64,000 bases of DNA from assembly GCA_036172245.1 (NCBI GenBank), contig JAYWIR010000013.1:2480001-2544000 (forward strand). Reading direction: 5' to 3'. Shown piece by piece: positions 23,450-56,390 of this stretch. The stretch comes from Raillietiella orientalis (taxonomy: Eukaryota). The notes under the pieces are model-generated. The model was given only the letters and a program-made list of their open reading frames with translations. It was not told the origin of the DNA and searched no databases. The translations under genes and the position numbers were made by a program. How positions within the stretch are numbered: the first letter of the stretch is position 1; every line of letters starts with the position of its first letter.

Positions 23450-23655
23450 TCCCTCCCCAACCCTTCCAAATCTTTTTTTTTTTATGTTTTATTTTTCTTT
23501 TTGTTTTTTCCCCCACCCCTTTCCGCTGCCGAGGAGAGTCGCGCCGGTCTGCGTACCGGCGACCCGGCAGGTCCAGTTGAGTTGGCCGTAGTGGGGCCTC
23601 GTACCACGAATTATAGAGAATTTATAATAAACGCCCCGGCGTGACCGGGTGCAAA
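23450..23655 (+). other. 3' UTR of copy C: pyrimidine tract, multi-stem RNA structure, AATAAA and terminal hairpin
   Basis: Stems ctgccg/cggcag (23526/23565), gccggt/accggc (23543/23555) and gtgg/ccac (23591/23604); terminal cccgg-cgtga-ccggg. Confidence 0.75.
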
Positions 23656-29600: not shown

Positions 29601-30425
29601 ACTGGGAAATATACGGACGGATCTCGAGGGCTTCCTTCAACGGATGGGCCCTTATCACAGCGCTTAGTTATCCCTTCCCTGCCCTCCAACTTCTTTTTGT
29701 CTGTTTATTTTTTTTGTTTTTCGTTTTGTTTTATCCCGATCCCCCTTCGCTGCTCAGGAACGCTACGCTGGGCTGCGTCCCGGCGTCCCGGCAGGTCCAG
29801 TGCATATAGCCGTGAGCGGGGTCTTGTACCGCGTATGTAGAGTTTTTTAAAAATAAACGCCCCGGGCGTACCCGGGTGTAAACCTTCAAGGCTGGCAAGA
29901 AGGCCGTAAGGCGTCCGGACTCCCCTCAGGAGTCCCCCACTTCCGACCCCGAGGTGGAGGCCGGAAGCGCAGCCTCCGTTTCCACGGCACCGCGCAAGAA
30001 GGCTGGACGTAAGTCCACAAAGCCAAGGAAGCTCGTCTTCCCCGTCGATGGAGAAGAGATGGCTTCAGCAAGCGAGGGTGCCATGAGCGTGGGAAACTCT
30101 CGGGACCCGTCGCCCGAGAGACTCCCACGCGCGGACACGGAGGGGATGGAGGGGGTGGAGGCCGAACAGGTGCCTCAGGTGCCTGAGAAGGCCGAAACCC
30201 GCATGGACATCCCTCCTGCCTCGCAAGAGAAGGGCTCCCCCACACCTTAATCTTCCCAGCAGTAATGCCGGGAATCTCCTCCCGCCGTCGTCTGCGCATC
30301 GCCGTTTCGAACGTGAACGGCATGACAGACGCCGGCAGGAGACGAGACATGGCCGCCCTTCTGGAGTCCTACGACCTTGCACTGCTGCAGGAGATCCACG
30401 TGATCTCTGCAGAACAAGCGCAAGA

Positions 30426-35400: not shown

Positions 35401-36940
35401 TTAAAATGGCAGGAGTCGGCTCTCCTGTTGCAGCACTGGGGACTCCCCTGCAACGCCCGCCGACACCACTGGACCTGGGGAGCGGTGGACCCCAATTGCG
35501 TCAGGTGTGGGGAACGAAAGTCCCTCCCCCACCTGCTAGTGGATTGTGTTGCCCTTCGGCCCCTTTGGTTTTGCTTTGCAGCGGCCATCGGAATCCCCTG
35601 CAGCAACCCCAGGGACGCACTTTAAGCCCTCTTTGTTGCCGACGCCCTTCGGCCAGCGGCCTCGTTACAGCTTTGTGCTGCCTACGCGGGATCGTCACCG
35701 CTTGGAGCAAGGCTACGGGAGGACAACGCGACCAGGGTGCCATCCAGCCAGCCTCCCAGTTCCTGAGGAGGGCGTCCCGATGGCCCCACCTGGATCCAGG
35801 AATACAGAAGGAGCTTGTTGGCATCCTGCAAAGGATGCAACGGCCCCACCAGCAACTGTGATCCTTTCCCTTAACCTCCCAACTTTTCCTTTCTTTTTTG
35901 TTTTGTTTTTTGTTTTTTCCATTTCCCGCTGCTGCCGTTTTGACCGTACAGGTCTGCGAACCAATGAACCGGCAGCCTCTGTGTTTCTTAGTGCGCGGCT
36001 GGAGCAATGGTCAAGCCACCGCACGTCTTTGTAAATGTTTATTTCACAACAAACGGCCCGGCGAAATCCGGGTGAAAATCGAACGCCTCCTGGAGATCGA
36101 CTGCGAGCGCTAAAGCCCCCTTCTTCGCCCGGATATCCCTTCCCTGTTGGGAATCATTTTAATGTACAACTGGCAGCCCCAAAGTACGGTTGGAAATTTT
36201 CCCGTTCCCGTTTTTTTGACTCCTCTGCAGGTGCATTCACGTACTTTCAAAGACGAGCTTGGCCTCCATACTTCGCACGGGAACAGCATAACTCTGCTCC
36301 GGGCAAATTATGGATTCTGCCACCTGCCCCAGACGCGAAGCCCATAGCCCTGCTATCAACATGTCGTCCGTATTCACGATCGTGATCGGACGCCAGTTCA
36401 ATTTTCTGAGGACTTCACCTTTCGAGAGGAGCCTCACTCTGCCCGACCAAAACGAGGAGGCAACTTCGCTTTGGTCTCGGATCACCCTTGTCGAATAAAG
36501 CAGCAGGGGTGCGAGCTCTTATGCGATGCTCTCAAAGAACTCCGCGAGTAAGCCGTCTTCCCTTGGAGATTTTCGCCTCTTGAGCCTATTCATACCAGAA
36601 AGAATTCCGCCGGTGGTAAAAGGCTCGTCAAGGCTTAACATCTCCTCCTCCCCTATTGCCGCGGCGCCTTCCGGAAGCAAGCGCCGAGAGGCGTTCCGAT
36701 CCGGGGGCTTCCTGGCGTAAAGGGAGGAATAAAAACTCCGCACGAGATGCCGTACCGACGCCGGGGACAACCATTTTCTGCCCTGGGCATCCAGCAGGCT
36801 GGTCGACCTGGATTACCAGGTTTGGCTTTCAGCCCCAGCGCTGTATTCGGCCAAGCGACGGACATTAGCGGTTCTCTCGTACCAGCTGACCTGTAACTAA
36901 GCCCTATGTTTGCGAGGACCCTCGCCAAATCTCACGGTCA

Positions 36941-38962
36941 GCGGACATGTTTTTTCTGCGCTCCCGAAAGTATTGCTAGGAAGGTTTTCTTTGTGTGTGT
37001 TTGATGTGTGGACATCGTTGGTGTCCGATGGTAGCGATGCCTGAGGACACCACGATGGAGGTTGGTGTGGGTAAGGCTTGCCCACTCTCACAGCCTACAG
37101 AATCAGGGGCGTTCGTCCCGGAATCGCCCTCGCCGCGCAAGGCTAGGAGCTGCAGCGCCATGGTGGCCGCGCCTAGCGCGGAAACCATGGCAGAGCAGAT
37201 GGCATACAAGTATGCTGGAAGGAAGCCTTAGCTTGTTTATTAGATAAGCCCTCTATTCGATGGCAAAGCCGCACGAGCCTTCTCAACGACGCTGCAAAAC
37301 GCCGGAATAGAAGAACAAGATCTTGACGGCCTGTCCGTTCTTAGCGGAGGTCAGGGAGACGAGGTGGTGTGCAACAACATCACCTTGGCTCAGAGCTTGA
37401 TCACCAACCCTTTGAACGTCGACGGCCGCAAGATATTACCAGTGACGAGGGAACGCTCCGTGGTGGTCCATCTCACAGCCGCATGACCAGGTCTGCAGTT
37501 AGTAAACAATTAAACAAATGCAAAGATGTGCACGCGTTGTCGGCAAAATCCACGATTTTCAATGCATTCGAAAGCCTTTTTGGGAGACAGGCCGCAATGC
37601 GTTTCACGGTAAAGCAGGATGGTGGGCTTCCCCACAAACTAGAAGTCCGAGACGAAGTAGTACACCTCTGGTACGTGCGGGAACCCCGCTTTTGTGGCTA
37701 CTGCAATGCAGTAGGGCACCTTCTTAAGAGGTTCCCGAACATTGTGTGTCATTTCTGCGAAGATAAAAGACAAGTTCGCCGCATATACCCTAAATGCTCC
37801 ACTCCGGTGCCGCCTGCTGCCAAGAAAGCGCTGGGAAAAAGGTAGAAAATTGATTGAAAGACCAAAGAGAGATACTGGCCGGCAGCAGCCGCCAGGCCCC
37901 CTTCCTCATACACAGGCGTCAGAAGAAATACCTACCGAAGACGGGGGAGTCCAGAACGGCTGGCAGCTGGTTAAGGCCAGAAAAAAGAAGGTGCTCCCCG
38001 CGAAACCCGTGAGAGCGGTGAAGAAGACGTCGGTAGAAGGAAAAAGCCTGGCAGCGCTTAAATACTCTGCGGGAGTGCACTGTGGCACTGGAGCACATAG
38101 CCGTTCCCGAGACTGCCACCCGGGGCGAGGAGCCTACCCTCGCCGTTTCCGCCGCACCCGAGGTTCGCGACGGCGAACCCTCTGTTTACACAGAGGGTGA
38201 GCCGCGCGAAATAGCGACGGTCGAAGCCGAGGACGCCGCGTTCGCGCAGGCGGCGGAGGAGCTGCCGGCAACGCTGGCCGAGCGTGAGAACCTATCGCGT
38301 AAGTCCGTGCGAAGGCCGGCTCCAGCAAAGAAGGCCCCCGCAAGTGAGTGCGACCTGGAGGCCGGAAGTTCATCCTCCTTCGCGGAGGCGCGCCATAGCC
38401 AGTCGGGACGCAAATCTCAGATCCCAGGAGGCGCCTCCCCTCCACCAGCTAGGAGGAGAAGCAGGAAGGTAGCAGAAGCGTGGGAATCCCGAAAAGGGAA
38501 CTCTCACACTCGGAAGCCGTCGAGCCGTCCACCCTTATTGAGGAGGGTATGCAGACGGGTAAAGTCCTCCCCGCAGTCCCCGACTCTGAACAGCCCGCCC
38601 CCATGGAGAAGGGCAAAAAGGTAGGCGCGACTCCCCCAGCGGTTGACCCGCTCGACGCGGCGTTACCCATGGAGAAGGCGCATCAGGTGTCTTCAACACC
38701 TGACCTTCCTTCTCCACCTAGTGTCCCGCACCAGCAGTGGGCTGACGCCGCACTGCCCCTTTCCTAAAAATAGTACCTGGACTCGCCAGTCGCCGTCGGA
38801 TTCGCGCAGCCTATTGGAATGTCAACGGGCTGAGCGACGACGGTAACAGGCGAAATACGGTTCACAATCTGCGTCACTTCGATTTGCCGCTCCTGCATAA
38901 GATACACGTGATCACCGTTGAGAACGCCCAGGAGATAGAGTCGATCGCGGTGGATCGGCTGT
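36941..38962 (+). mobile_element. LINE copy B'3 (B-related; subfamily assignment inferred), 5' portion, antisense in B'2 at FGEG; cut by E'1
   Basis: 5' gcggacatgttttttt. ORF1 remnants (MPEDTTMEVG.., CGYCNAVGHL). APE start at 38771-38962. Confidence 0.85.
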
Positions 38963-41045
38963 TTATCACCCAAGTGCGCCGGGGCGTTTATTAAGAAATT
39001 ATCCGGGAACAGAGTTCGTAAACAAAGGAAAAACCAGAGACGAAGGGGATGGAATCCCCGACACGCAATTCAATATGCCGAAAGTCCGAAATGGAAGGGA
39101 AAGGGCCACATCTACACTACTGTGAAAAAATAAAAATATGGAGGGCAAGGGACAGGGGACTTTGGTAACGCCTTTCCTTCCTTTCAGAACCGGCGATGGA
39201 TGCCGGCGAACTCTCTTCTTTCGTCCTCTGGCAGATAGGCTCACTCGGCAGCCAACGATATGCTTGCGCTGACTAATCCGAAGAGCTTACGAAGGATGTC
39301 CAGCTTCTACAACTCTCGGTGGGCCTTGTCGATGGCGCGGGTGCAAAACACGGTTGCAACGACAGCACCCAAACACAGGCCGCCTGGCGTGAAGAAGTGG
39401 CGCATCAAGTCCCTCGCGGTATCCCCCTGGTGCGGGAGAGCTGAGGCCAGCCTCCACCAAAGTCCTAGGAGGGCACTGCAGTCCAGGCTCAGGTGCGGGA
39501 GCGTTAACACTTCCACGCACCGCTTGCAGTTTGGAGAGACAACCCCCCGGAAACACGGTTCGTCCGCTGGTTGGAGTGAAAACTTCAATGCACCAGAACT
39601 ATGACTTCCTGCTTCTACGAAAGGAAGAACACAGAAGTGTTGAGACACGAGGGAGGGACCACAAGTTCTTCGGAGGGCACACTCAAGTGTTTCCTACATC
39701 GGAGGAGTCCATTCGAGATATGGCGAGGCGTGGCGGCGTCTGCCAGCTCGCAAGTCCTCCAGCTGCCAATGGATCGTGTTGTTGCTGCGATGGTTCAGGC
39801 GACCTCCCAACTTGCCGGTTCGTAGCCGTCATCACTTGTTCTGAGGGCTAACAGCGCTTCGACGAGGGGCTTGACGGCCAGGCGAGTCCACTTATCCTGG
39901 CTGTTGCACACCTCATCCACCTTGCAGTACAGGGAGAGGTGAGCGCAACAGAGTTCCAGGAGTGAAACGTCCTGTTGCTTTGCCCAGCCATGCAACGGTT
40001 CCTGCCGCCAGGATTAGAAGTTCGTTGGGCGGCAGGAGATCCATGTGTGGGCTGCCAGGAGCCGATAGAGTGGTTTCAACGGGAAACCGAAGCTATTCGT
40101 GGAGCGCTCTGTTTGCGGACGCAGCGACAGAAGTCCGTCGCTGCCGCTGCAGCGCCGCAGGAGCTGGCGCGCAGGAGCGCACCACGGAGTGGACCAAAGG
40201 TTGGCGCACAAGACCAACATTCGAAGCTGCACCTGCAGCTCGATTCTCTCCAGCGTCAGGATGCCTAAGCCAGCATCCCCACGCGGAGCTGCCAAGTCTT
40301 TGAGGCGGATCCTGGACCTCGCAGATCAATACAGAGCATTCCTCAACAGGCTGTGTGCAAAAAGCTTGCCTGAGTAGAAAAGCGGGCAAACAAAGAGCAG
40401 AGGGCGCAAAAGCAGGCCAACGAAGGTGTTCCATATGGCATCCCGCTACGGCAGGACGAACCTGCAGAAAAGTAACGGGCTCAGAGGACTCGTAGCCTTC
40501 CGAAGACAGTCCGATCACACTTCCACACTGCTGATATTCCTCAGCGGGACGCCCACATATTGGATGTGCGAAGCGGGCAGTATCCCCAGGCGGATCCAGC
40601 CGGACTGCCCTTCTCACGCCGCACCAATAGGAACGACCACGCTCTTTCTCCGTTTTATGCTCATTCCCGCTCTCCGGCAAACCAGCTCGAAGAAATTCTC
40701 AAGAATGGACGCCGGGGTGGTCATGGGTAAATGGAGAAGCTGGTCTTCAGCGTAGACCGCCACCGACGGCGTTTCTGGAGAAGAGCTCGGCAGGTTGGCC
40801 AGCCGCAGCCTGAACGCCCTCAGCACCAACTCAAAGAAGATGCTAAAGTGCAACGGGCTCAAGCTGTCGCCCTGCCTGATGCCCCGCCGCACAGGCACGC
40901 CGTACACGTGTCAGCCGCTGAAAAAGATAAAAATGAGCGCGTGGCGCCAGCAAGTTCGCAAATAGGCCTCGAGGTGTTCTGGGAGACCGAGGCGTTCCGG
41001 GAGCTCCAGAAGGAGATCCTCATTCCCGCAGCCGGACGCTTTATA
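38963..41045 (-). mobile_element. LINE copy E'1, 3' half, antisense in B'3 APE at GGRL; cut by A3 at a degenerate KAFD
   Basis: RT remnants (GIRQGDSLSP, YAED) in 40614-40907. Zinc finger in 39307-39648. 3' end aataaacgccccggcgcacttgggtgataa. Confidence 0.88.
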
Positions 41046-41050
41046 CGCTC

Positions 41051-42410
41051 GAGGGCGGAAGTGTTTTCTCGGTTCTCCTCGTGCCAGAAAGTCTTCCCTA
41101 AAGCAAGCATCGTGTGGTTCGTTGGTCGATCTGGCAGTGATGCCTGACGTGTACACCAGAGGTGGCCAGGGCGCAGCGGTAACGCCGCCCCCAGAGGCGA
41201 TGGAGGAGGGGCATCCGCCCCCCCTCCATCGCCTCTGGGGAATCAATCATCGCTGCAGCGCGAACGTGGAGCGCCGTTGTGTCGGCGCCATCGCGTGCAG
41301 CCGCGGCAAATTGTCGGCATATGTAGAGGAGGGGCACAACCCCTCATTGTTCTAGAAGGTAGGCAATTTATATTCTTCAGAGAGCGCGCGCGCCTTCTCG
41401 AAGGGCATGCGCGCTCTCGATGTGAAAGAGGAGGAAATCAACGCTATGACAAACCGCAGCGGGGGTCAGTACGTTGTGGTCATCTGCAAACAAGCAGAGC
41501 TGGCCCAACGACTACTCAAAATAACCGTGATGTTGGGGACGCGCAGGCTCCTCCCCATTACGGCGGAACGCAGCATGGTGGTCCACCTATTAGGCGTCAC
41601 CGAGCGGATGCGGAAAGAACAGGTTCGCGCAGAGTTGGAAGAGTATGGAACGGTCAACGCGCAGTGGTCGAAGGTTAGTACATTTAAGGACTACACGACG
41701 GTGCAACATCGCTTCACGGCTGCACGCGTGACTGTTCGGGACGGCTGCACTCTCCCCCACAATCTGGTGGTCGATGGCGAAACCGTCGATCTATGGTATG
41801 TGGGGAAGCCGAAATACTGCGGCTACTGCAATACGTCTGGCCATCTCATAAACGAATCCCAACATGAAGTGCCAAGTATGGGGAACAATGCGTCACACGA
41901 GGGAGGAGTGCCCAAAAGCAGCAGTGCGGTTGGTTTCCAAGAGAGACCGTAAAAAACGCGCCTGATTGCTATAAAAAAGGCTGGCGACGAAACCTCCGCG
42001 AAGGCTGTGCCACCCGCGCCCAAGACCCAGGCCGCACCCGAAACCCCGGCGACCAACGCCGAAAAAGTTGAGGGAGCCAGCCAGGAGACTGGGTGGCAAG
42101 TGGCAACGGCCAAAAAATCAAAGGAGAGGAGGATGGAAAAGAAAGTCGCCTACCAACAGAAGAAGAAAGAGCAGGGTAGCGCGATAATTGAAGAGTGCAA
42201 CGTTGTCGTCGAACGCGTGCTCGATGTTACCCAGCGCTGCTAGAAAGAACTCACCGCGACCGACGACCTCCCCTCTGTTGACTCTGTCAACAGCAAGGGG
42301 AGCGAGCCGGCGGCGGCGTCAGTCACCGACAGCACCAACGATGACGTAGCCTTCGCAAGAGAAGCGGAGGTGCTGGCTGTCTCGTTCCAGCCCCCCCCTT
42401 CCGCGGCCAG
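41051..42410 (+). mobile_element. LINE copy A3, 5' portion (ORF1), cut by B2
   Basis: 5' gcggaagtgttttc at 41055. ORF1 homologous to A2 (MRALDVKEEE.., CGYCNTSGHL). Confidence 0.9.
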
Positions 42411-45400
42411 TTGGAGGACGTGTTTTCCCTTCACTCCTCAAAGGGTAGTAGGAAAGCGCTTTCTTGTGTGTGGTGTTTAGTGTACATCGTCGGTGTCCAA
42501 TGGCCACGACGCCAGAGGACACCGCGATGGAGGTGGGAGTGGGGGAGGCTAGTTCGCCCCCACAGCCTACTGGAGCAGGGGCAGCCGCCCCGGAATCATC
42601 CCCGGAAACGCCGAGGACATGGAGCGCCATGGTGGCAGCGTCCAGCGCGGAAGCCATGGCAAAGATGGCCGCATACAAGGCCTGCGGGTACAATTCTTTG
42701 CTCGTGTACCAGGTAGGTAACTTGTTTGACGGCATGATTGCACGCGCATTTAGATGGGCGCTGCAGAAGGCGAATATACTAGAAAAGGATCTTGACGGCC
42801 TCTCTGTCCTCAGCGGCGGGCAGCGGGTCGAGGTGGTGTGTAAGGACGTTACCTTGGCTCACCGCCTAATCCATGTGCCGCTGAACGTAGACGGCCGCAA
42901 GATCCTGCCAGTATCCATGGACCGCTCCGTGGTGGTCCACATGACTGGCATCACCAGCCGCATGACGCGGTCAGCGGTTGTTGAGGAATTAAGAAACTAC
43001 GGTGAGGTGCACGCACTGTGGCCGAAACCCTCCATTTTCGACGGCTTCGATAGCCTTTTTGGTGGGCAGACTGCAGCGCGGGTCACCGTACGGGAGAATT
43101 GTGGGCTTCCCCACAAACTACAGGTGGCGCAAGAAAACGTCGACCTGTGGTATGTAGGGAAGCCCCGGTATTGCGGGCATTGTGATACCGTGGGACACCT
43201 ACGTAAAAGGTGTCCCAATATACAATGCCATTTGTGCGGGGAGCGGGGCCACGTTCGGCGCGTGTGCCCTACACGCCCCACCCCGGTTCCCCCTCCGCGA
43301 AAAAAGCGCAGGGGAAACGCGCTTCAAAGGTCTCTAGACCTAAAGTGGAAAAGGGCCAGCACAAGCTGCCAACACCTCAACCTCTGGCGCGTAAGCCGAA
43401 GGATAAACCTTCTGAAACGGTGGAAGGCGAAGAGGGATGGCAGCTTGTAGAGGCCAGAAAACCAAGGAAACTCCCATCCGCGGACAGCAAAGAGCGCAAG
43501 ACGGCCGGAAAGCCGAAAAAACCCGGTCCGCGCTCGAAAACTCTGCGCGTGTGCACGGTGGCACTCGAACGAATCGTCGTTCCCGAGATTGCCACCAGGA
43601 GCGTCGATCCTCCCCTTGCCGTTTCCGCTGCGCCCGAGGCTCGCAACGGCGAACCCTCTGTTTACACAGAGGGTGAGCCGCGCGACATAGCGGCGGTCGA
43701 AGCCGCGGACGCCGCGTTCGCGCAGGCGGCGGAGGAGCTCGCGGTCACGCTGGCTGAGCGTGAGAACCCCTCGCGCAAGGCCGTGCGAAGGCCGGCTCCG
43801 GCGAGGAAGGCCCCCAAAGGTGAGTTAGACCTGGGGGCCGGAAGCACATCATCCTCCTCGGAGGCACCCCCCAGGAAGTCGGGACGCAAGTCCCAGAAAC
43901 CCTGGAGGCGCCTCCCCTCCACCAGCGAGGAGGAGAAGACGGAAGCCGTCGCCAGCGAGGGAAATTCGGAGGAGGAATTCCCACGCTCGAAAACCGTCGA
44001 TCCCGCCACCCCCATGGAGGAGGGTGAACAGGGGGGTTAAGTCCCCCCTGCGGCGCCGACCATGAAAAGCCCGCCCCCATGGAGGAGGGCGAACAGGTAG
44101 GCGCGACTCCACCTGCGGGTGATCCGGCCGACGCGCCGGCACCGATGGAGGAGGGGGACCAGGTGCCTTCAGCACCTGACCCCCCTCCTCCACATAGCGT
44201 CCCGCCCCAGCAGGTGGCGGACGCCGAACTGCCATCTTCCCAGGAGTAACACTTGGGCTCGCCAGTCGCCGTCGGATTCGCGCGGCCTGTTGGAATGTCA
44301 ACGGGCTGCGCGACGACGGTAACCGGCGAGATACAGCCGACACCCTGCGGGAGTTCGACCTGGCCCTGTTGCAGGAGATCCACGTGATCACCGCGGCAGA
44401 CGTCCAGAAGATCGAGACGATCGCGTGGGGTCGGCTGTACTGGCAATGCGGCATCCGCAACACCTGCGAGGTCGCGTTCTTCGTGAAGCCGGCCATCGAC
44501 GCTGCCGTGAAGGGCGTGCGCTTCGATGACGACGGTCGGGTCGGTCAGCTGACTCTCGGCTGGTCCGACTCGATCGATCTGATCGTCACGAATGTGTACG
44601 CCCCAACCGGTCAAAAGCAATACAGCAACCGTACCAGACTGCTTGAATCCCTGAAGCGCGACTGGCTGGCGAACACGAGCGTGCGGAAGGCTCACCTGAT
44701 AGCGGGAGATTTCAATCGATTGCGGACGTGTTTTTCTTCGCTCTCGTCTCCGTGCTTTCATCCGCTCCATCTTGGAGTCGTACATTTTGACGACGATGTC
44801 GACCCAACTTGAAGCTACTGAAGTTGGAGGAACAGCATCCGGATCTGCAATCGCGGAACCGACGGCCGCCTCCACTTCGTCTTTCTCGCCAATGAAGAGG
44901 AGTTTTGCTGACGTTGCTGCCACAGCAGCCGTCAAAGGGAAACCACTCGACGAGTCGGAGTTGCGGGCATACGTAGCCCAAGGCTATAGACCTGCTCTCC
45001 GATATAAGGTGAGTGGTTTTCTTTCTGCGCGCGACGGGAATCAGTTCAACGATGAACTGACCTGTGTTGGCGTGCGGGAGGAGGACCTTCTCGCCATTAT
45101 GCCCGTAAAAGACATGGGCTATTTCAAGGTGCGTTGCAAAGACGCTGCACTTGTGCAACGCTTGCTGCGCACACCGTTGTCGATCCGTGGCCAGAAGGTA
45201 TTCCCGGCCGCCATGGAAGACTCATTTGTGGTAGAGATTTTCGACATCGAGTCGGAAATCTCCGATACTGATATTCAGAACGCGTTGGCGAAATTCGCCA
45301 CGGTCCATGCGCTGTGGAGTGTGCGTAGCAACCTCAAGGACTTCCCGTCTATACACAGCGGAGTCGCTGGAGTCCGGCTTACAATGCCGGACCGCCGTCT

Positions 45401-48400
45401 GCTGCCCACCAAACTACAGGTGAAAGACACGGTCGTTCACCTGTGGTTCGTGGGCAAAGTAAGAACGTGCGAGCAATGCGGGAAGGAGGGACATTGTTTG
45501 GATAAATGCCCCTCTGGAAAATGCCGTTATTGCAAACTATCCGGGCACCAATTGAAAAATTGCCCGGATCTTTTGCGAAAAAAGGCAGCCGCGGAGCTTC
45601 ATTTTAAAAAAACAAAGCGCGGATGAAAACAAAAAATCTGCGAAAAACCTGGAGACCCCACGGCAGAAATTCGGTAAAAACGCGAGGCGGAATGTCGCCC
45701 CAAAGCAGCAGGAAACCTCGCACGCGAAGCCCTGCGCGCCCCCTCTCGCGGCAGGGGAGCCGCAAAAGAAAGGGTGCGGGGAATCCGGGGCAATGGTAAG
45801 TCCCCCTAGGCGCAATAGCTGTCCTTCCCAAGCACGCCCGGCTCTCTCAGAGTTCGAGCAACCGGCGGGGACGCCAATGGACAACGGCGGTAAGGACACT
45901 TCCAGTACCGTCAGATCCATTCCTTCACCTCCTGCAGTGGCTGAGAAGCCCAAATCGGGTAAGAAGGGTTGTGCCGTGTCGACTTCGAAAGTCGGCAAAA
46001 AAAAATCCGCGTCGCGATCCAACACCGCGAAAGCGGAGAAAAATCTCACTCCGTCGCAGTCGGAGAGCAAGCTCTCGACTGGCGCGGATGCCATGCCAAC
46101 GAAGGGATTAAAAGCCCTTCCGAAAGCAGCGTCCATGACGAGCGTATCGGAGCCATCGAAAGTGCTCCCGTCCAAAGACGCGGATGGCTTCAAAGATGGC
46201 AATGGAGCACAATCTCCATTTACGGCGCCACGCGAAGTGAGGAACCGTAATAAAGTAAAGAAGACTTCAGCAAAGGTCCCTCGTGCAACTGCGCGTGAGC
46301 ACGCTGAAAACGCGCGCGCCGGGAAAGCAGCCGTCACCAAAAGCGATGCTCTGGTGACGGAAAACGAAAACAGGACAGCTGTCAATCCAGCAGAACCTGT
46401 CACTGCTTCGCGGACGGCCGAAACCCGATCGAACATGCGCCGGTCGGACTCCGAAATGGATGCCGTTCCGATCACCGAGACGAGGACAACTCGTTCGAAA
46501 GCGTGTGCGCGCCGATCAAAAGTAGGCAGCCAGGCAACGCTAGCCGCGAAGCAACGCGAAGTCTCCACAAAACCCGACGGGGTTCAGCCTGGCGTGGAGG
46601 CATTACATGCATGCAGCACGACAGAGGACGGTGGCGACCGTCCCCTCAGGCCAGTCGTGCTGCTCGCCGTCTGCTCGCCGGATAAAGCGAGCAAAAAGCT
46701 GCCACATTCCCAGCAGTAATGCGGGGAATCGCGTCTTCTCGTCGTCTGTCCGTAACGTGTTGGAACGTGAACGGACTGCAGAACGACGAGAAGAGGCGAT
46801 TAGTAGCCAACGCCCTGCGCCCCTTCGAACTCGCGCTGCTGCAGGAGATTAACGTAATCTCCGACGAGCACGCAGCCGAAATCGAGGAGCGCGCAGGCGG
46901 AACGCTACATTGGCTGTGCGGCGGCGCACACACGTGCGGCGTCGCGTTCCTCGTATGAGGAAAAATGGCGGAAGCGGTGCGTAGTGTTCGTTTCGATGAC
47001 AACGGACGGATAGGCCAGATTGTCATCAAGTGGTCCGAGTCCATCGATCTCGTCGTTACGAACGTCTACGCGCCGAGTGGCTCTCGCTACCTCGAAGAAA
47101 GAGTAGCTTTCTTTGGTGAGGTGCAGAGCCAGTGGCTCAACAACTCCGGCTTCCAAGTGGCGCATCTCGTCGCTGGGGACTTCAACGTCCGCCTGCTCTC
47201 CGACGATTGGAGCCGCCCGAGGGAGCGCGCGCTGCCCATCGAGATGTGCGCGTCCGTGCACGCCGCCAACTTGATGGTCAGCGAACCTGGAATGCAAAGA
47301 TCGCTCGATCCCGTTTTCCTCGATGAAAACCTGCATTCGCGTGTGGGTAGGAGAGGAAGATTGTTGACTGAGCTTTCTGACCACCACAGGTTGGAGCTTG
47401 AGATCCTTCCGCCAGGCAGGGGGCCTCCGTTGCAAAGCTGGAGGATGCAGGCGGATTGGCTTAGCCAACCGGAGGCTGCGGAGCATCTACGTGGATACCT
47501 CCGCGGCTTTGCCATTCAAGAACTTGCGGACTGGGACGATCTCAAAAGATCTGTCCGCGAGTTCTGTTGCCAATTCCCCTTGCACCGGCTTCCACGCGGT
47601 TTCGGAGAGGGCGTGGCCAACAGTAGAGACTTTCTGCAGGCCTGCACGTTTTCGAGACGCGCGGATGTCGGGCGTCTCGCAGAGTACAAGGCGAGGGCCG
47701 AGCGCCAGGTCTGGCAGTCCGGAGCAGCATGCCTGTTGGACGACAAGGGCCAGAAATGTTCGGCCCCAGCCGAAGTACGTCGCATTGTGAGACGCTACTA
47801 CTCCTCGCTCTACGCGGAATCTTCGACGGAGGATATTCTTTCTGAGATACTCCTGTCTCAGGATGCTCGTGTTGTCGGCGAGGAGGAACGCGAACGTCTC
47901 GACGAGCCCTTCACGGCGGATGAAATTTCGTCCGCAATCGCTGGGCTGAAGAGACGAAAGGCGCAGGCGAGGATGGGCTCCCTGCAGAGTTTTATCATTG
48001 CTTTGCAGTGGAGCTCATTCCCTTGATGCCGAAATTCGCGACGCTGATGAGTGTTCCGTTGGGCGCTTTCGGCGCAGCCGAAGCGTGGGCGGACTGTCTT
48101 CAGAAAGCAGAGTTGGCCATCTGCCCGTTCTTTAACGGCAAGTTTACCTTGCAGGAACGGGCGACTATTTGGAACACCTTTGTGGCCCCCCTCCTCCGTC
48201 CCCTGTTTTTTGTTTTGGACTTCCTCTATGCAGCAAAACAGCGGGCTAAGCGCCTGCTTAGGAACGCTCTCTGGGGTCCGGCGAGATCCAGGATCCGCCT
48301 TAAAGATTTGTCAGCTCCGCGTCGGGATGCTGGTTTGGGTATCCTGACAATGGAGCGAATCGGACTGCAGGTGCAGTTCCGACTGCTGGCACTGTGTGCA

Positions 48401-51400
48401 CAGCTATGGACATCCCCCCTGTGTGTGCCCGCTCGCATTCTCCTGCGGAGATGCGCCGGCAGCGGAGGATTTCTCTCGCTTTTGCCGGGCACTCAATACA
48501 GGAAGCGGGGTTTCGGTTTTCCATTGCGGAGGTTGACCGCACTTCTGGAAGCACACTCTTGGATCTCCTGCCGCCCAATGAACTTTGAAGCTTGGCGGCA
48601 GAAGTCTGTTGAATCCTGGGCGGCGTTCCAAGGAATACGCCCTGAAGATCTTCGCCTTCTGCGCCAATTTTTTCCACGATCCTTGGAAGAAGTACTGCAG
48701 GACGAGGTGAAGTTTTCTACCCTGGCTTCCACGCCTCTTGCCGCAGCGCTGTCTGCCCTCAGGGCAAGAAACGACAGTTACCAACCGGCGAGGTGGGAGG
48801 TTTCCTGCACGATAGCGGGAAGAACCAAACTCCTTGGCACCTGGAAGACAAGTGAGTTGGCGGACGCCGCCACTCCTCGTGCTACTGCAAAGGGACTCCT
48901 CCGGTGGGCAGAAGAACTTGCTGTCACCCCCGAAGAACTTGTAGTCCCTCCACAGTGTATGGACAGTTCGCTGCTCCCCCTTGCTTGGAAACAAGCCGTG
49001 CTGCTTTTCGTTCACTGGGGTTTTCAGTGCAACGAGCGTTGGCATCGTGACTCCGGGGGACTTGCGTCTGCGAACCGCGTTCGGTGCGGATCGACGGAGT
49101 CGATTCCGCACCTACTTCTGGACTGCGGTGTCCTACAAGGACTGTGGCGTAGGCTGGCAACAGCACTATTGCATCCCGTGGACACCGCAAGAGACTTGAT
49201 GCGACGATTCTTCACGCCGAGCGGGCTTTCACTAAGCGCAAGGATTGCAACCATCGGTTGCATACGCGCGATAGTTTCCGTCCGCCAGGCGTTGGTAATC
49301 AACGGACAGCACCAAGAGGTAATCAGCAAAGCATCCTTCTACATGGGAGCATCCGCTAGATGGCCTCATTTGACAGAGGAGACAAAGAGGAATCTCGCCG
49401 CACTACACCGCCGGTTTACACACCCTCATCAGCGGCCAACCCGGTGATCATTGCCCTACCCTCCATAAACTAAATTTGTATTTTCTTTTTACACCCGCGT
49501 CTCCATAGGCTCCGGAACATTTTAGGTGTTCATGGTATAAATACCCGTGAGTACGGAGCCTAACCAAAAACCCGTTACCCTTCCCTCCAGTTTTTGATTT
49601 TTGTTTGTTTCCCCTCATTCCCCCCCCGCTGCGAGCGGTTTGTTTACCAGGCCTGCGTGCCGGTAATTTTTCTATGTTCTCTGTCGTTCTCTTGGTTGGC
49701 GACATTGTCCCTGACCAGTTTATTATTATTAATAAACGCCCCGGCGTGACCGGGTGATAAATTTCAATCTCCGCCTGCTAACAGGTGAGCCGGAAACACA
49801 GGTGAACGCGATGAACGAGTTGTGCGCCGCCATGCGTGCGCGCAACTGGTTCGCGGGTGAGAGGGGAATGGTCCGCAGCATCGACCACGTCTTCCTCGAC
49901 GCTGACCTGTGTTCACGGGTCGGAAAACGGGGGAGGGTTGCGTCAACGTTGTCGGACCATTCCCGGTTAATTTTCGAGATGCGGCCTCGCGACAAAGGAC
50001 CTCCATCCAGGGACTGGCGTCTGCCAGGGGACTTGACGCGACTCTCAGGTGCGAAGGAACACCTTCGCGAATACCTGAGAGGCGTCACGCTCCGGAATCT
50101 CCAATACGGTGACCTTTTTAAGGAATCGGTTCTGGAGTTCTGCGAGCAGTTCCCCCTGGACCGCCTGCCCTCCGGATTCGGCGAGGGTCGTCGCAACCAT
50201 CGGGTCTATTTACAGGCCTGAAGGTACGAGCGAACCCTTAATGTCCGTCGCCTGGCCGAGTACCGCGCCGGGGCCGAACGCCAAGCCTGGCAATCCGGGT
50301 CGGCCAGCTTGCTGGACGACCAGGGCCAGGAATGTTCGTCCCCGGCGTCGGTACGGCATCTCGTGCGGAGTTATTATTCCTCCCTTTATGCCAGGGCGCC
50401 CCGGATCAAGATGCCTCGCGGCTCTTGCTTCCGGATGGTGCCCCGGAAATAGGGGAGGAGGAGTCGTTAAGGCTCGATGAGCCTTTTACCACCGGCGAAA
50501 TTCTCGCCGTTATCAAAAGGCTCAAGAGGCGGAAAGCTCCAGGGGAAGACGGCTTGCCCGCGGAGTTCTATCAGAGCTTCGCGGAAGAGCTGGCACCCCT
50601 GCTGCTTCAGATGCCAAGGCTGATCCGAGACGAAGGCGATGTTTCCGCCTCGTTTCGGTCAGCCAGAGTGAGGCTCCTTCCGAAAGGGGGAGACCTTAGG
50701 AATTTGAACAACTGGCGTCCGATCACGATTGTGAATACGGACGGCATGTTGGTTGCCGGGCTATGGGCTTCGCGTCTGGGGCAGGTGGCAGAATCCGTAA
50801 TTAGCCCGGAGCAGAATTATGCTGTTCCCGGGCGAAGTATGGATGCCAACCTCTTCTTCGCAAGCACATGGGTGCACCTGCAGAGAAGAGAGAAGAAAGG
50901 GATAGGGAAAGTCGGCAACCCCACTTTGGGGCCGCCAGCAGGGCAGGGAAAGGACTCTCGAGCGGGAAAGGGGGCCTTAGCGCTCGCAGTCGATCTCCAT
51001 AAGGTGTTCGACTGTGTTGACCAGGGACTTTTCTTGGAGCTCCTGGGTCGCATGGGCTTCCCACCCTCCTTGATCAACTACCTGCGCTCCTGCTGGCGCC
51101 ATGCCATAATTTCCGTTTCTTTCAGCAGTCAGAAGGTGCATGGCGTGCCGGTGCGGCGGGGCATCAGGCAGGGAGATAGCCTGAGTCCCCTGCTCTTCAG
51201 CAGCTACTTTGAGTTGGTGCTGAGAGCCTACAGGGTGACTTTGGCCACCTCGCCTAGCTCGTGTCCCGGCACGCCCGCCGTAGCAGCCTATGCCGACGAC
51301 CTTCTGCTCCTGTTACCTATGTCCACTCCGGCGAAGGCGGTCGGAGACTTCTTCGATCTGCTCAGCCGTGGGACCGGACTGCAGGTCAACAGGGCGAAGT

Positions 51401-53106
51401 CGTCGGTGGTGCCAGTAGGTGCGGCGTGGGCAGGGCAGCAGGACTGGGTCCGTCTGGGGATCCCCACGGCGAGGTGCCTCAAGTACCTTGGTGTGCCGTT
51501 GGGTGACTACTCCCCTGCGGAAGCGTGGTCCAGCTGTCTTCAAAAAGTTGAGACGGCGATCGGCCCGTTCCTGGAAGGCAAGTTTCACTTGCCGGAACGG
51601 GCCGCGGTTTGGAACGCCTTCGCGGCCCCCATCCTCCGCCCCTTGCTTTTTGTTTGCCCCGCCCCAAGAGTAGTTAAAAAGAGGACGAAGGACCTCCTCC
51701 GCATCGCCCTTTGGGCCAAGGGGAGGTCCCGAGTCCCTCTGCAGGACTTGTGCGCTCCGCGTCGGGACGGCGGCCTTGGCCTCCTGACGCTGGAGCGGGT
51801 GGAAATCCAGCTGCGGTGGCGAACCCTCGCCATTGCAGCGAAGATGTGGAGCACCCCTTGGTGCGTTCCGGCCCGCCACCTCGCCAGGCGTGTTTTCCGA
51901 TGCGAAGGACTCGCGTAGTTTGTTCTGTGCCCTGGCCGGAAGATCCGAAGATGCGGCCTTATGCTCGGACGCCTAGCAACCTTGGCGAAGACGAACGGTT
52001 GGATGGTTTGTGGCCCCGCCAACTCCTCCGCCTGGTTAGAGGAGTCTGCTGGCACATGGGCTAAGCTGAACCGGAGGAGTGAAAACCACATGAACTGCCT
52101 GCGAATCGGCCCATACGCCAACCGCACTCTGCGGGAATACTGGTATTTCCTCGGAGTCGCAGGTGGGCGTTGATTACCCCCCTTGCTACGGCGATGCCCT
52201 ACCTCCTGAGGGCGCTTAAGGATCGCCAGAAGCCGAGGTGGCAAGTCACCTGCCAGATCGCAGGCAGGGAGAAGATGTTAAGAGGCTGGACCACAGGAGA
52301 ACTGGCGGACGCCACGACCCCGAGCGTCCAGCCGCGTGGATTAATGAGACGGGGCGAGCTGCTCGCCATCCCTACGGATGTGCTGAAGTGGCCCCCGGTA
52401 CTAAAGGAATCCAGGATCCTGCCCCTCAAGTGGCAAGATTCGGCGTTGCTACTGCTGCACTGGGGTTTACCCTGCAACCCACGCCGCTTCCACTGGACAA
52501 AGGGAACTGTGGATCCTGAGTGTGTCAGGTGCGGAGAGCGGGAATCGCTCTCCCACCTTATTGTGGACTGTGCTGCCATCCGACCCCTCTGGGAACGGTT
52601 CGGGGCGACCCTAGGGCTCCCTACGAGCAGCAACCCCAGAGACGTTCTTCGGCCCCTCTTCGTGAAGGACGCACTGCAGCCAGCCGCAGCCATCGCAGCC
52701 TTGTGCTGTGTCCGTGGCATCGTGGCGGCATGGAGCGACGCCAAAAACTAAGTAGTGGCTCCACAGGCGAGGGATGTCATTTTCTACGCCCAACGCTTCA
52801 TGCGGAGAGCTGCCGGATGGCCCCAACTGGGGAATATACGGACGGACCTCAAGGGCTTCCTTCAACGGATGGGCCCTCCTCACAGCGCTCAGTGATCCCT
52901 TCCCTGCCCTCCAACTTCTTTTTGTCTGTTTATTTTTTATTTTTCTTTTTGTTTTATCCCCATCCCCCTTCGCTGCTGAGGAACGCTACGCTGGGCTGCG
53001 TCCCGGCGTCCCGGCAGGTCCAGTGCATATGGCCGTGAGCGGGGCCTTGTACCGCGGATGTAGAGTTTTTTAAAAAATAAACGCCCCGGGCGTACCCGGG
53101 TGTAAA
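42411..53106 (+). mobile_element. LINE copy B2, full-length but degenerate. Segments 42411-44717 and 49761-53106; hosts F.
   Basis: 5' ttggaggacgtgtttt. ORF1 42500-44249 is frameshifted. APE is split at GDFN. RT in ORF 50332-51918. 3' end aataaacgccccgggcgtacccgggtgtaaa. Confidence 0.92.
44718..49760 (+). mobile_element. LINE copy F, both ends present, RT core deleted (~48050), sense insertion in the B2 APE GDFN motif
   Basis: 5' gattgcggacgtgttttt. ORF1 44796-46719. TAATG at 46717. APE 46719-48026 and ORF2 C-terminus 48008-49447. 3' end aataaacgccccggcgtgaccgggtgataa. Perfect 9-bp TSD atttcaatc at 44709-44717 / 49761-49769. Confidence 0.93.
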
Positions 53107-54621
53107 CCTCCGTGGTGGTCCACATGACCGGCATCACCAGCCGCATGACGCGATCAGCGGTTGTTGAGGAATTAAGAAACTACGGTGAGGTGCACGCACT
53201 GTGGCCGAAACCCTCCATTTTCGACGGCTTCGATAGCCTTTTTGGTGGGCAGGCTGCAGCGCGGGTCACCGTACGCGAGAATTGTGGGCTTCCCCACAAA
53301 CTACAGGTGGCGCAAGAAAACGTCGACCTGTGATATGTAGGGAAACCCCGGTATTGCGGGCATTGTGATACCGTGGGACACCTACGTAAAAGGTGTCGCA
53401 ATATACAATGCCATTTGTGCGGGGAGCGGGGCCACGTTCGGCGCGTGTGCCCCAAACGCCCCACCCCGGTTCCCCCTGCCGCGAAAAAAGCGCAGGGGAA
53501 ACGCGCTTCAAAGGTCTCCAGACCTTAAGTGGAAAATTTGCCAGCACAAGCTGCCAACACCTCAACCTCCGGCGCGTAAGCCGAAGGATAAACCTTCTGA
53601 AACGGTGGAAGGCGAAGAGGGATGGCAGCTTGTAGAGGCCAGAAAGCCAAGGAAACTCCCACCCGCGGAGAGCAAAGAGCGCAAGACGGCCGGTAAGCCG
53701 AAAAAACCCGGTCCGCGTTCGAAAACTCTGCGCGAGTGCACGGTGGCACTAGAACGAATCGTCGTTCCCGAGATTGCCACCCGGAGCGTCGATCCTTCCC
53801 TTGCCGTTTCCGCTGCGCCCGAGGCTCGTAACGGCGAACCCTCTGTTTACACAGAGGGTGAGCCGCGCGACATAGCGGCAGTCGAAGTCGCGGACGCCGC
53901 GTTCGCGCAGGCGGCGGAGGAGCTCGCGTTTACGCTGGCCGAGCGTGAGAACCCCTCGCGCAAGGCCGTGCGAAGGCCGGCTCCGGCGAGGAAGGCCCCC
54001 AAAGGTGAGTTAGACCTGGGGGCCGGAAGCACATCATCCTCCTCGGAGGCACCCCCCAGGAAGTCGGGACGCAAGTCCCAGAAGCCCAGGAGGCGCCTCC
54101 CCTCCACCAGCGAGGAGAAGACGGAAGCCGTCGCCAGCGTGGGAAATTCGGAGGAGGAATTCCCATGCTCGGAAGCCGTCGCTCCGGCCACCCCCATGGA
54201 GGAGGGTGAACAGGGGGGTGAAGTTCCCCCTGCAGGCGCCGACCCTGAACACCCCGCCCCCATGGAGGAGGGCGATCAGGTAGGCGCGACCCCACCTGTG
54301 GGTGACCCGCTCGATGTACAGTTTCCTATGGAGGAGGGGGAGCAGGTGCCTTCAGCACCTGACCCCCCTCCTCCACCTAGCGTCCCGCCCCAGCAGGTGG
54401 CGGACGCCGCACTGCCATCTTCCCAGGAGTAACACCTGGGCTCGCCAGTCGCCGTCGGATTCGCGCCGCCTGTTGGAATGTCAACGGACTGCGCGACGAC
54501 GGTGACAGGCGAGTTACAGCCGACATCCTGCGGGAGTTCGACATGGCCCTGTTTCAAGAGATCCATGTGATCACCGCGGCAGACGTCCACGAGATCGAGG
54601 CCATCGCAGGGGGTCGGCTGT
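53107..54621 (+). mobile_element. LINE copy B3, internal fragment (ORF1 from SVVVHMTG to the APE start), cut by E'2
   Basis: Closely matches B2 42924-44438; TAACA junction at 54430. Confidence 0.9.
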
Positions 54622-55058
54622 TTGTCACCCGGTTGCGCCGGGGCGTTTATTACAAACTATCCGGGAACAGAGTTTCCGGACAAAGGGGAAAACAAGAGAG
54701 GCAGGGGGTGGGATCCCCGACACGCAGGTCGGTATGCTGAATGTCCGGAACGTGAGGGAGGGGACCACAAATACACTACTATGAAAAATACAAATAAAAA
54801 TATGGAGGGCAGGAGACAGGGGGCTTTGGTGAGTCCGTTCCTTCCTTTCAAAAAAGGCGATGGATGCCGGCGATCTCTCTCCTTAATTCCTCTGGAAGAT
54901 GGGCCCACTCGGCAGCCGACGACATTCTTTCGCTCTCTAATCCGGTGGGCTGTCGAACGATGGCCAGCTTCTCCAACTCTCGGTGGGCCTTGTCGATGGC
55001 GCGGGTGCAACACACGGTTGCAACGACAGCACCTAAAGACAGGCCGCCTGGCGTGAAG
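54622..55058 (-). mobile_element. LINE copy E'2, short 3' end, antisense in B3 APE at GGRL
   Basis: Homologous to E'1 38963-39395. 3' end aataaacgccccggcgcaaccgggtgacaa. Confidence 0.88.
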
Positions 55059-55755
55059 AATCCAGGATCCTGCCCCTCGAGTGGCAAGAGTCGGCGTTGC
55101 TCCTGTTGCACTGGGGTCTACCCTGCAACGCGCGCCGCTTCCACTGGACGAGGGGAGCTGTGGATCCTGCGTGTGCCAGGTGCGGGGAGCGGGATTCGTT
55201 CCCCCACCTTATTGTGTTTTGTGCTGCCCTCCGACCTCTTTGGGTACGGTTCGGGACGACCCTCGGGCTCCCTACAGGCAGCACCCCCAGAGACGTTCTT
55301 CGGCCCTTCTTCGTGAAGGACGCACTGCAGCCAGCCGCATCCATCGCAGCCTTCTGCTGTGTCCCTGGCATCGTGGCGGCATGGAGCGACGCCAACAACG
55401 AAGGAGTGGGTCCACAGGCGAGGGATGTCATCCCGTATGCCCAACGCTTCTTGCGGAGAGCTGCCGGATGGCCCCAGCTGGGAGATATGCGGAGAGACCT
55501 CAAGGGCTTTCTTCGAAGGATGGGCCCTCCTCACAGCGACCAGTGATCCCTACCCTGCCCTCCAAACTCTTTTTGTTTTTTATTTCTTTATTTTTCTTTT
55601 TGTTTTTTCCCCTCATCCCTTTTCGCTGTCGGGGAGTGCCACGCCGGGGTGCGTCCCGGTGTCCCTACAGGTCCTGTGCATAAGGCCGTGAGCGGGGCCT
55701 GGTACCGCGATTGTAGAGTTTATTAATAAACGCCCTGGTCGTACCGGGGTGGCAA
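55059..55755 (+). mobile_element. LINE copy B'4, 3' fragment, antisense to G3 at GFG
   Basis: ORF 55097-55546 is the ORF2 C-terminus with zinc finger. 3' UTR like B'1. End aataaacgccctggtcgtaccggggtggcaa. Confidence 0.9.
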
Positions 55756-56183
55756 CGCCGAAGCCCGGCGGGAGACGTTCCAGGCGAAACTGATCGCAAA
55801 ACTCGCGGACTGAGCACTTCATTTCGTCCCAGTCCGCGAGCGTCTCAAGATGGAATCCTCGCAAGAAGGCGCGCAGGTGTTCCGCCGCTCCTGCGAGGCG
55901 CAACCAGTCCCCCGGCAGGCACCACGTTTTCAGGGGATGGTCCTTGTCGCGTGGATGTATCTCGAGCACGAGCCGTGGATGCTCGGACAGCTGTGCCGGG
56001 AGCGTTCCTCGAGTTCCCCCCTGCGTGCACAGGTGGTTGTCGAGGAACATGTGGTCGATGTTCCGATCTCTCCCGGCATCACCGGCCAACAAGTTGCGCG
56101 CGTTGATGGCTGCGCACAACTCGTTGACCAGTCGTGCTCGACTGCTGGGCGCACCCGCCAGAAAGCGGAAATTGGAGTCCCCG
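55756..56183 (-). mobile_element. LINE copy G3, APE fragment
   Basis: GDSNFRFL..NIDHMFLD..LSEH..LPPGFG in minus ORF 55613-56299; homologous to G2 8960-9389. Confidence 0.85.
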
Positions 56184-56390
56184 TTATTTCTCTTTTTGTT
56201 TGTTTTTTGTTCTACTTTTCCCTTCCCATGCGCCTCGGGAATGGACCTAACCGATCTATGCACCGGCAACAGACACGTCAACCAAGGTGGGAAAAGCAAG
56301 TGTTTCCCACAACCAACTTTTGAAAGACTTTATTACCTAATTTTTGTAACAAATTAGAATAATAAATGCCCCGGCATATCCGGGTGACAA
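56184..56390 (+). mobile_element. Isolated LINE 3' UTR (copy H, G-related)
   Basis: T-rich tract, hairpin gtgggaaa/tttcccac, and end aataaatgccccggcatatccgggtgacaa resembling the G1 end. Confidence 0.8.

Follow-up and report, generated by a model that had tools for sequence, protein, structure and literature searches.

The DNA window analyzed here (the whole stretch of 64,000 nucleotides, or 64 kb, from contig JAYWIR010000013.1 of Raillietiella orientalis, with all of the positions below counted from its first letter) is eukaryotic and consists of a nest of long interspersed nuclear elements (LINEs) only. The nest appears to be composed of related, long-diverged LINEs of the apurinic/apyrimidinic endonuclease (APE) type, belonging to at least eight families in four clades, whose members insert into one another at family-specific sites, with this targeting being reciprocal and, at the family level, cyclic; we consider this reading to hold with a probability of roughly 0.8. 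A first-pass annotation of the window had described four junctions, at which a B' copy is cut by an E' copy, that E' copy by an A copy, the A copy by a B copy, and another B copy by E' again, and had taken them for a loop in which each insertion supplies the target for the next family and which might let the array grow without limit. The observation itself is confirmed, and its interpretation as an insertion cycle is supported. All of the structural results concern this one window, i.e., a single locus.

In a nucleotide tree of the part of the second open reading frame (ORF2) encoding amino acids (aa) 630-1000, which is the reverse transcriptase (RT) region, the copies form four clades showing 50-69% identity between them: the B clade (F1, T2, B1, and B2; 75-96% identical inside the clade), the A clade (CD, A2, and A58; 75-87%), the E clade (G, E, and E'1; 63-68%), and T1, which forms a clade alone. 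All of the elements have their ends in common, with a short family-specific leader being followed by the 5' core G(G/C)ACGTGTTTT (GGACGTGTTTT), and the 3' end being made up of AATAAA(C/T)G (AATAAACG), a CCCGG...CCGGG hairpin, TG (GGGTG), and a 0-5-nt tail (CAAA, TAAA, AAAA, AYAA, RCAA, or AGAAAT). It is these shared ends that allow the junctions to be placed to the nucleotide.

Insertion sites of the families and the insertion cycle

Each of the five families with more than one event recurs at one site. All four A events lie antisense over the codons of the RT motif KAFD: 3' junctions of the form GGGTGAAAA/TCGAAYGC are found at 2698 and 36078, 5' junctions at 4750, 11482, and 41049, and the fourth event is seen as GGGTGAAAA at 58155 next to a variant 8-nt remnant of the target (TCAAGCGC, 58147-58154). 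The reference case for this target is A1 (2698-4750, minus strand), an internally deleted copy with complete ends, which sits in T1 and is flanked by an 11-bp target-site duplication (TSD; AAAGCATTCGA at 2687-2697 and AAGGCATTCGA at 4751-4761, consensus AARGCATTCGA, 10/11 match). The B'-type elements likewise enter antisense, at ORF2 aa ~282 in four out of four events, with GGGTG/RCAACGCCGAARCCC at 798 (the 3' junction of the 5'-truncated copy el798), 9394, and 55751, and with the 5' side of B'3 on T2 falling on the same codons. Both E' events (38962 and 54621) are antisense at ORF2 aa 53, after GGRTCGGCTGT^; the three B events (B1, B2, and B3) lie downstream of ORF1 in A elements; and the two E-type events, namely E in A2 and the 5' end of el61814 in A58, are antisense at aa 40-43 of A. 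These five target sites have no motif in common, for which reason a specificity of its own for each family seems likely. For CD, F1, G, and X, just one event each is present. As regards orientation, of the 17 insertions that could be classified relative to their host, 13 are antisense and four in sense, namely the three B copies in A elements and G in B2.

The four junctions of the first-pass annotation are all present, each at or within ~15 bp of the coordinate given there. B'3 (36929-38962, plus strand; a B-related LINE with its 5' core GGACATGTTTT at 36943, ORF1, and ORF2 aa 1-53), itself antisense in T2 at aa ~282, is interrupted after GGATCGGCTGT at 38962 by the antisense E'1 (38963-41048, minus strand), of which the part between ORF2 aa ~556 and the 3' end (AATAAACGCCCCGGCGCACTTGGGTGATAA) is present. 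In the same manner, B3 (53107-54621, plus strand; a 5'-truncated B extending from ORF1 aa ~121 to ORF2 aa 53) is interrupted after GGGTCGGCTGT at 54621 by the antisense E'2 (54622-55058, minus strand), i.e., the last 437 nt of an E' element with the tail GGGTGACAA. The motif GG[AG]TCGGCTGT common to these two sites occurs three times on the plus strand (38952, 44428, and 54611) and not at all on the minus strand; at 38962/38963 and 54621/54622, the B-type ORF2 ends after ...GGCTGT at aa 53 and is followed, from 38963 and 54622, by the reverse-complemented E' 3' end (TTRTCACCC..GCGCCGGGGCGTTTATT), and B2 (44438) and B1 (14792) are uninterrupted there, continuing as ACTGGCAATGCGG. E'2 in B3 and E'1 in B'3, thus, occupy the identical insertion nucleotide. 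E'1, in turn, stops at 41048 on its KAFD-equivalent codons (YKASG), where A3 (41049-42415, plus strand; leader from 41049, core GGAAGTGTTTT at 41057, and ORF1 at 41317-42219) begins, antisense to its host. As for the remaining junction, the insertion of B2 into A3 stands, while its coordinate requires correction: 42411 includes 5 nt (TTGGA) that are common to B1 and B2, with the 5' core (GGACGTGTTTT) beginning at 42416 and the boundary being ambiguous within ~42398-42416. The left part of B2 (42416-44717, plus strand; 5' core to ORF2 aa 145) occupies the same A position as B1 does in A2.

These are insertion junctions and not deletion junctions, with element termini abutting the host LINE and with the complete parallels (A1 in T1, A2 in T2, and B1 in A2) showing both ends as well as TSDs; chance is rejected because the breakpoint falls on exactly the same nucleotide in independent copies whose hosts are of different families. 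B3, which follows straight after the tail of B2, is read as an earlier hit at the A3 site used by B2, and this rests on a tandem-insertion reading: at their contact (GTAAA/CCTCC/GTGGTGG), CTCCG is the target and also native B sequence. Two head-to-tail tandems are seen in the window, one at 6630-6700, where the 5' end of H lies 13 nt after the T1 tail, and one at 53095-53125, where the truncated B3 lies ~5 nt after the B2 tail, and both look like repeated hits on one target site. Directly upstream of the 5' core, B1, B2, and B'3 (12816-12834, 42398-42416, and 36925-36943) carry the 9 nt CRCGGYCAG, which is host (T2) sequence at B'3, with the B1 and B2 versions being closer to each other than their A hosts are; the B leader is possibly a fragment of an old B' target. 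CACGGYCAG as a part of a leader common to B and B' was considered and rejected, as it is host T2 sequence in B'3.

Taken as a guest-into-host graph, the insertions lead from A into T1, T2 (B clade), and E'; from the B'-type into T1/H-type elements and T2; from E' into B' and B; from B and from the E-type into A; and from CD (A clade) into B, F1 (B clade) into CD, and G (E clade) into B. The family loop of B into A into E' into B, as proposed by the first-pass annotation, is, therefore, present in the window, and so are shorter cycles (e.g., A into the B clade into A). A single nest records the succession T2 > B'3 > E'1 > A3 > B2/B3 > E'2, with the nests being four or five layers deep at most. 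The further suggestion that the activity periods of the families overlapped is borne out, since E'2 entered an element lying inside E'1 and the chain needs E' to have overlapped with A and B; an E' copy inside an element nested in another E' copy excludes a strict age order of the families. The A target, i.e., the KAFD codons, is present in all of the families, A included, which makes the loop one path in a dense mutual-targeting network rather than a special three-member ring.

Target choice and the origin of the shared junctions

Under the mechanism that we propose, target-primed reverse transcription would place each family at a nucleotide-precise site of its own inside other LINEs, with the host sense strand being nicked, in the antisense cases, directly behind an invariant nucleotide (TTCGA^ for A, GGCTGT^ for E', and GGCG^ or GTTGY^ for the B'-type elements), and with A landing on the antisense strand over the K-A-F-D codons of any family. 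Each new full-length copy would bring fresh targets for the other families, and nests would come back to the same family several layers down. The specificity presumably resides in the endonuclease of each family, by analogy with the R1 and Tx1 clades (PMC4640811). Read-through RNA pairing with the nicked target possibly acts as a helper, and the process as a whole would be self-sustaining.

Annealing of read-through transcripts to the target has been proposed for R1-type elements, and the alternative that survives best, although we regard it as unlikely, is that the sites are chosen mainly by such base pairing and not by the endonuclease, with transcripts reading into the old flank annealing at the new nick. 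The AATAAA signal, lying 20-25 nt before the element end, is in keeping with this, as cleavage could fall just past the end, and so are the constant flanks of each family (TCGAAYGC for A, ACAGCCGA for E', and CGCCGAA for the B'-type) and A1, which landed precisely with neither endonuclease nor RT. Pairing alone, however, accounts neither for a first nick that always falls on one nucleotide nor for a TSD of constant length (11 bp in both A1 and A2), and A1 could be mobilized in trans by A proteins. A1, in which ORF1 is joined straight to ORF2 aa ~1006 and the 3' end, is a non-autonomous derivative mobilized in trans, since it lacks the endonuclease and RT yet lies precisely at KAFD. Extending the endonuclease-based reading, the families might form a self-sustaining guild of at least five lineages, the endonucleases of which have been retargeted to different 10-20-nt blocks in the coding sequences of fellow LINEs, and which, by seeding each other's targets, would build and keep a LINE-only domain, possibly a centromere, with host genes untouched; this broader proposal is tentative, and we rate it somewhat below even odds.

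Whether the shared junctions reflect separate events is best approached from the clean insertions, i.e., those having both a TSD and re-joinable host halves (A1, A2, CD, F1, G, and E, as well as B1 with its poorer TSD); TSD length is 9-17 bp over seven insertions. The widest gap is that in T2, a B'-type LINE on the minus strand, the first half of which lies at 9394-11481 and the second, as placed by the tblastn map (ORF2 aa ~560 back to ~282), at 36079-36928; each half is ~81% identical to B2, and the 24.6 kb between them are taken up by A2 and the nest within it (11482-36078, plus strand). A2 itself comprises 11482-12833, 29883-30427, and 32425-36078, has its 3' end at 36078/36079 (GGGTGAAAA/TCGAACGCC), and is flanked by TSD copies matching at 9/11 positions (GAGGCGTTCGA and AAGGCGGTCGA). 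Inside A2 lies B1 (12834-15408 and 26859-29882, plus strand), and an uninterrupted homologue, D, bridges the B1 site, demonstrating that A2 resumes 3' of B1. B1 contains CD (15411-17755 and 23656-26858, minus strand; 17-bp TSD, 16/17 match), and CD contains F1 (17756-23655; TSD TAGMAACTTGGCGTSC, 14/16 match), while the 5'-truncated E (30428-32424, minus strand; TSD AACAAGCGCAAGA, 13/13 match) lies elsewhere in A2. B2 is split by G (44718-49760, plus strand), an E-clade element with both termini in sense orientation to its host and with a perfect 9-bp TSD (ATTTCAATC at 44709-44717 and 49761-49769), beyond which the right part of B2 (49761-53106, plus strand) runs from ORF2 aa 143 to the 3' end ...CCCGGGTGTAAA and matches the right part of B1 at 94% identity. 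That host halves re-join across up to 24.6 kb argues against misassembly.

The identity along aligned composites steps exactly at the element boundaries, which indicates separate insertions and not copied composite blocks. When 11200-15408 is compared with 40764-44717, the host part (T2 vs. E'1) shows 57-64% identity, the A part (A2 vs. A3) 77-91% (mean of ~83%), and the part from the first base of B onwards (B1 vs. B2) mostly 90-99%, with one 150-nt window at 80% and one at 88%. At the two E' junctions, identity amounts to 73.6% on the B side (B'3 vs. B3; n = 1503) and to 84.2% on the E' side (E'1 vs. E'2; n = 431); B'3 is 73.6-73.9% identical to B3 and B2, and an identity of 94.9% is seen between B3 and B2, the latter being free of any E' insert. 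In the KAFD class, the guests are 74-92% and the hosts, which come from three clades, 57-66% identical.

It is with these figures that a copying origin has to be reconciled, according to which a small number of ancestral composite blocks were multiplied by segmental duplication, unequal crossing-over, or gene conversion, with the shared junctions being copied along with them and the cycle counting the same events repeatedly. Self-BLAST alignments do cross junctions (11251-14518/40815-44098, 37476-39396/53138-55060, and 8963-10086/56182-55056), the last of these pairs shows similar identity on each side (79% and 84%), and junctions of a deletion type exist at 55058, 56182, and 58146. Against it stand the stepwise identities at the boundaries (~60/83/94%, 73.6 vs. 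84.2%, and hosts at 57-66% vs. guests at 74-92%), the 95% identity of B3 to the E'-free B2, and the origin of the A hosts from three clades, so this explanation is very improbable overall and, for the A, B, and E' classes, largely refuted. Slightly less probable still is that host and guest composites (B with an antisense E', or the 5' part of A fused to B) were retrotransposed as units, the junctions being inherited from a composite master. Both of the A/B junctions are letter-identical over their last 12 nt (CGGCCAGTTGGA) with A2 and A3 being just ~83% identical upstream, as a master would have it, but A2 resumes beyond B1, which means that the A element was whole when B1 entered it; A1 is complete, contains no B, and is flanked at KAFD by a TSD of its own; the two sides have diverged to unequal degrees, which does not agree with a single master; and the ORF2 of an E'-carrying B would be broken. 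Finally, a pile-up of non-specific insertions in a permissive region (centromere or heterochromatin), with the shared breakpoints being chance or alignment artefacts, would suit the single events (CD, F1, G, and X), which offer no recurrence to test, and the lack of a motif common to the targets of different families, but is already refuted within the window by 15 events of five families at 5 sites with single-nucleotide precision in elements of ~5.6 kb, the odds of even one coincidence under random entry being ~1 in 5,000.

Several points nevertheless weigh against family-specific reciprocal targeting and temper the confidence placed in it. A3 in E'1, E'1 in B'3, and E'2 in B3 are each represented by one junction in the window, and the far halves of A3, E'1, B'3, and T2 were not found in it by the tblastn map; each edge of the loop described above amounts to 2-4 events. 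The TSD of B1 is poor (9/13, or just ~5 bp) and the 5' boundary of B ambiguous. The contrast in the aa-282 class is weak (guests at 79-89%, with T2 vs. S10 at 79%, and hosts, H vs. S11, at 84%), and this class alone would be compatible with copying. Six KAFD sites (in CD, F1, B1, A2, B2, and A58) are unfilled, including perfect ones in A. Insertions of the same families outside LINEs may exist, a single window having been studied, and 55058-58155 holds junctions that require deletions.

In that last region, E'2 ends after 437 nt at the 5'-truncated S10, and the E'2/S10 junction is not a clean insertion; X (56183-56386, a 5'-truncated fragment) and the 8-nt KAFD remnant (58147-58154) also need deletions. 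Deletions or recombination have acted on 55058-58155, and some of the junctions there are rearrangement products; the loop does not rest on these junctions right of 55058. The region is composed of short fragments, i.e., S10 (55058-55755, plus strand, a 5'-truncated B'-type 3' end), the adjoining S11 (55756-56182, minus strand, H-like, ORF2 aa 282 to 142), X, a G-like 5' part, and the KAFD remnant, which are not closable as simple insertions. The S10/S11 junction was also considered as the place where the 3' end of B'3 meets T2, and this was rejected, as the putative TSD copies match at just ~13/22 positions.

Composition of the window and related sequences

The LINE-only make-up of the window follows from its self-similarity and from tblastn tiling, with the gaps lying inside elements. 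Self-BLAST gave 120 alignments with lengths of 300 bp or more, direct as well as inverted, at 64-95% identity, and tblastn with the ORF1 and ORF2 proteins of F1, the largest ORFs of the window (ORF1 of 345 aa at 18102-19139 and ORF2 of 1184 aa at 19895-23449), tiled it with fragments on both strands; 89.5% of the bases have self or ORF similarity, and the remainder are untranslated regions or inter-ORF spacers within elements. The GC content across the 64 kb is 54-62%. The hallmarks of APE-type LINEs, i.e., non-LTR retrotransposons of an L1/Tx1-like architecture, are found, namely an APE endonuclease and RT in ORF2, TSDs, 5' truncation, and no long terminal repeats. In the ORF2 of F1, Pfam recognizes Exo_endo_phos (residues 4-209, E 9e-11) and RVT_1 (450-722, E 6e-19), with zf-RVT (E 0.0023, 19 bits) falling under the cut-off of 27.5 and a C-X2-C-X7-H-X4-C string being seen C-terminally in the translation; in its ORF1, zf-CCHC (E 4.5e-5, 23.8 bits) is over the cut-off of 20.8. 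F1 is the innermost element of its nest and the sole copy with both ORFs open and both termini, and, judging by its sequence, may still be active. Canonical 5' ends are present in 11 insertions, as opposed to 5 clearly 5'-truncated copies (el798, E, B3, S10, and X). RNAalifold on 16 element 3' ends gave 4 pairs with a covariation term of -0.19 kcal/mol, which makes the terminal hairpin conserved in sequence and not proven by covariation.

In protein searches, the best long matches to the window elements were at most 28% identical, and none was named Zepp. Among the short proteins, one metagenomic JGI protein of 619 aa (P0055) showed 68% identity to the F1 query in BLASTP and 62-69% to the B-clade and A-clade ORF2 copies of the window in tblastn. 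The ESM Atlas yielded generic RVT/APE clusters only, none of them with taxa. A metagenome scan with the shared 3' motif AATAAACGCCCCGG found 120 loci, none having blastn similarity to the window at E 1e-10; in seven contigs of one metagenome sample (L045, L049, L053, L054, L056, L058, and L059), a repeat opens with the same 14-mer followed by AATAAACGCCCCGGCGTTTATT, and these contigs, having no blastn similarity to the window, may show the 3' end of an unrelated element.

A search of sequencing runs by sampled window words found one DNA run (X1) matching 0.19 of the words, with no RNA run among the matches listed. Contigs from this run cover 20 of the 30 bins of 36500-56400 at 95-99% identity, with none in 36500-41147, 41812-42475, and 53100-54427; being 95-99% alike, they represent a relative or other strain and provide no assembly check at the four junctions of the loop. 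One of them joins 44708 to 49761, i.e., depicts a B-type site without G. G has an internal deletion near 48030-48053, where ORF2 aa ~413 is joined to ~719, and an X1 contig departs from the window at 48053 and continues as RT-like sequence (joining 48053 to 50707, 61 letters).

Relation to known systems and significance

Nested clusters of L1-type LINEs at putative centromeres have been described for Zepp in Coccomyxa (PMC3446292) and in Chlorella, and for ZeppL in Chlamydomonas and its relatives (PMC8226300 and PMC9940879; also PMC11005252), where one, or one to two, families per species target existing copies and where the arrays consist mainly of 5'-truncated 3' ends of a single family (PMC8226300). 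The window resembles them in being a LINE-dominated domain, tens to hundreds of kb in their case, that has grown by insertion into existing copies, in its ORF2 with APE and RT, and in its GC content (61% for Zepp in C-169). It differs in holding at least eight families from four clades, each with a distinct precise site, whereas the parts of the Zepp/ZeppL papers covered state no fixed nucleotide target, and in not being mostly truncated 3' ends of a single family, given the 11 canonical 5' ends vs. 5 truncated ones.

The target-specific APE LINEs of the Tx1 and R1 clades, on the other hand, share with the window elements nucleotide-precise integration, a constant TSD, an APE endonuclease, and the use of repeated DNA as a safe target. 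R1 inserts into 28S rDNA, TRAS and SART into telomeric repeats, and Tx1-group elements into snRNA or 5S genes, microsatellites, or other transposons; in these known cases, the target is a multicopy gene of the host, a simple repeat, or a DNA transposon, whereas in the window it is the coding sequence of sister LINE families, with the targeting being reciprocal and several specificities being found in one nest. The Drosophila elements HeT-A, TART, and TAHRE are similar in that a chromosomal niche is built and occupied jointly by several LINE families, but they attach head-to-tail at chromosome ends and are not known to insert into one another at fixed internal positions, and no telomeric repeat is seen in the window. 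A full-text literature search turned up no description of multiple LINE families that target one another at distinct, nucleotide-precise sites, although the original Zepp papers and the supplements were outside its scope, and an earlier account may exist. Relative to the known kinds, i.e., target-specific APE LINEs and self-nesting LINE clusters, what is new here is the multi-family, reciprocal, and nucleotide-precise character of the targeting.

Zepp and ZeppL are candidate centromere DNA of several green algae, and, in the parts of that literature covered, how new copies find old ones is stated just as targeting existing copies. In the window, target choice is legible down to the single nucleotide, is family-specific, and is reciprocal among diverged families, which offers a concrete mechanism for the rise and persistence of a transposon-only domain and indicates that target-specific LINEs can use each other, besides host repeats, as safe havens. 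If the guild proposal is true, the window would, moreover, hold a naturally occurring set of APE endonucleases that are closely related but recognize different long sites, and such a set would be useful for understanding how APE-type nucleases change their specificity.

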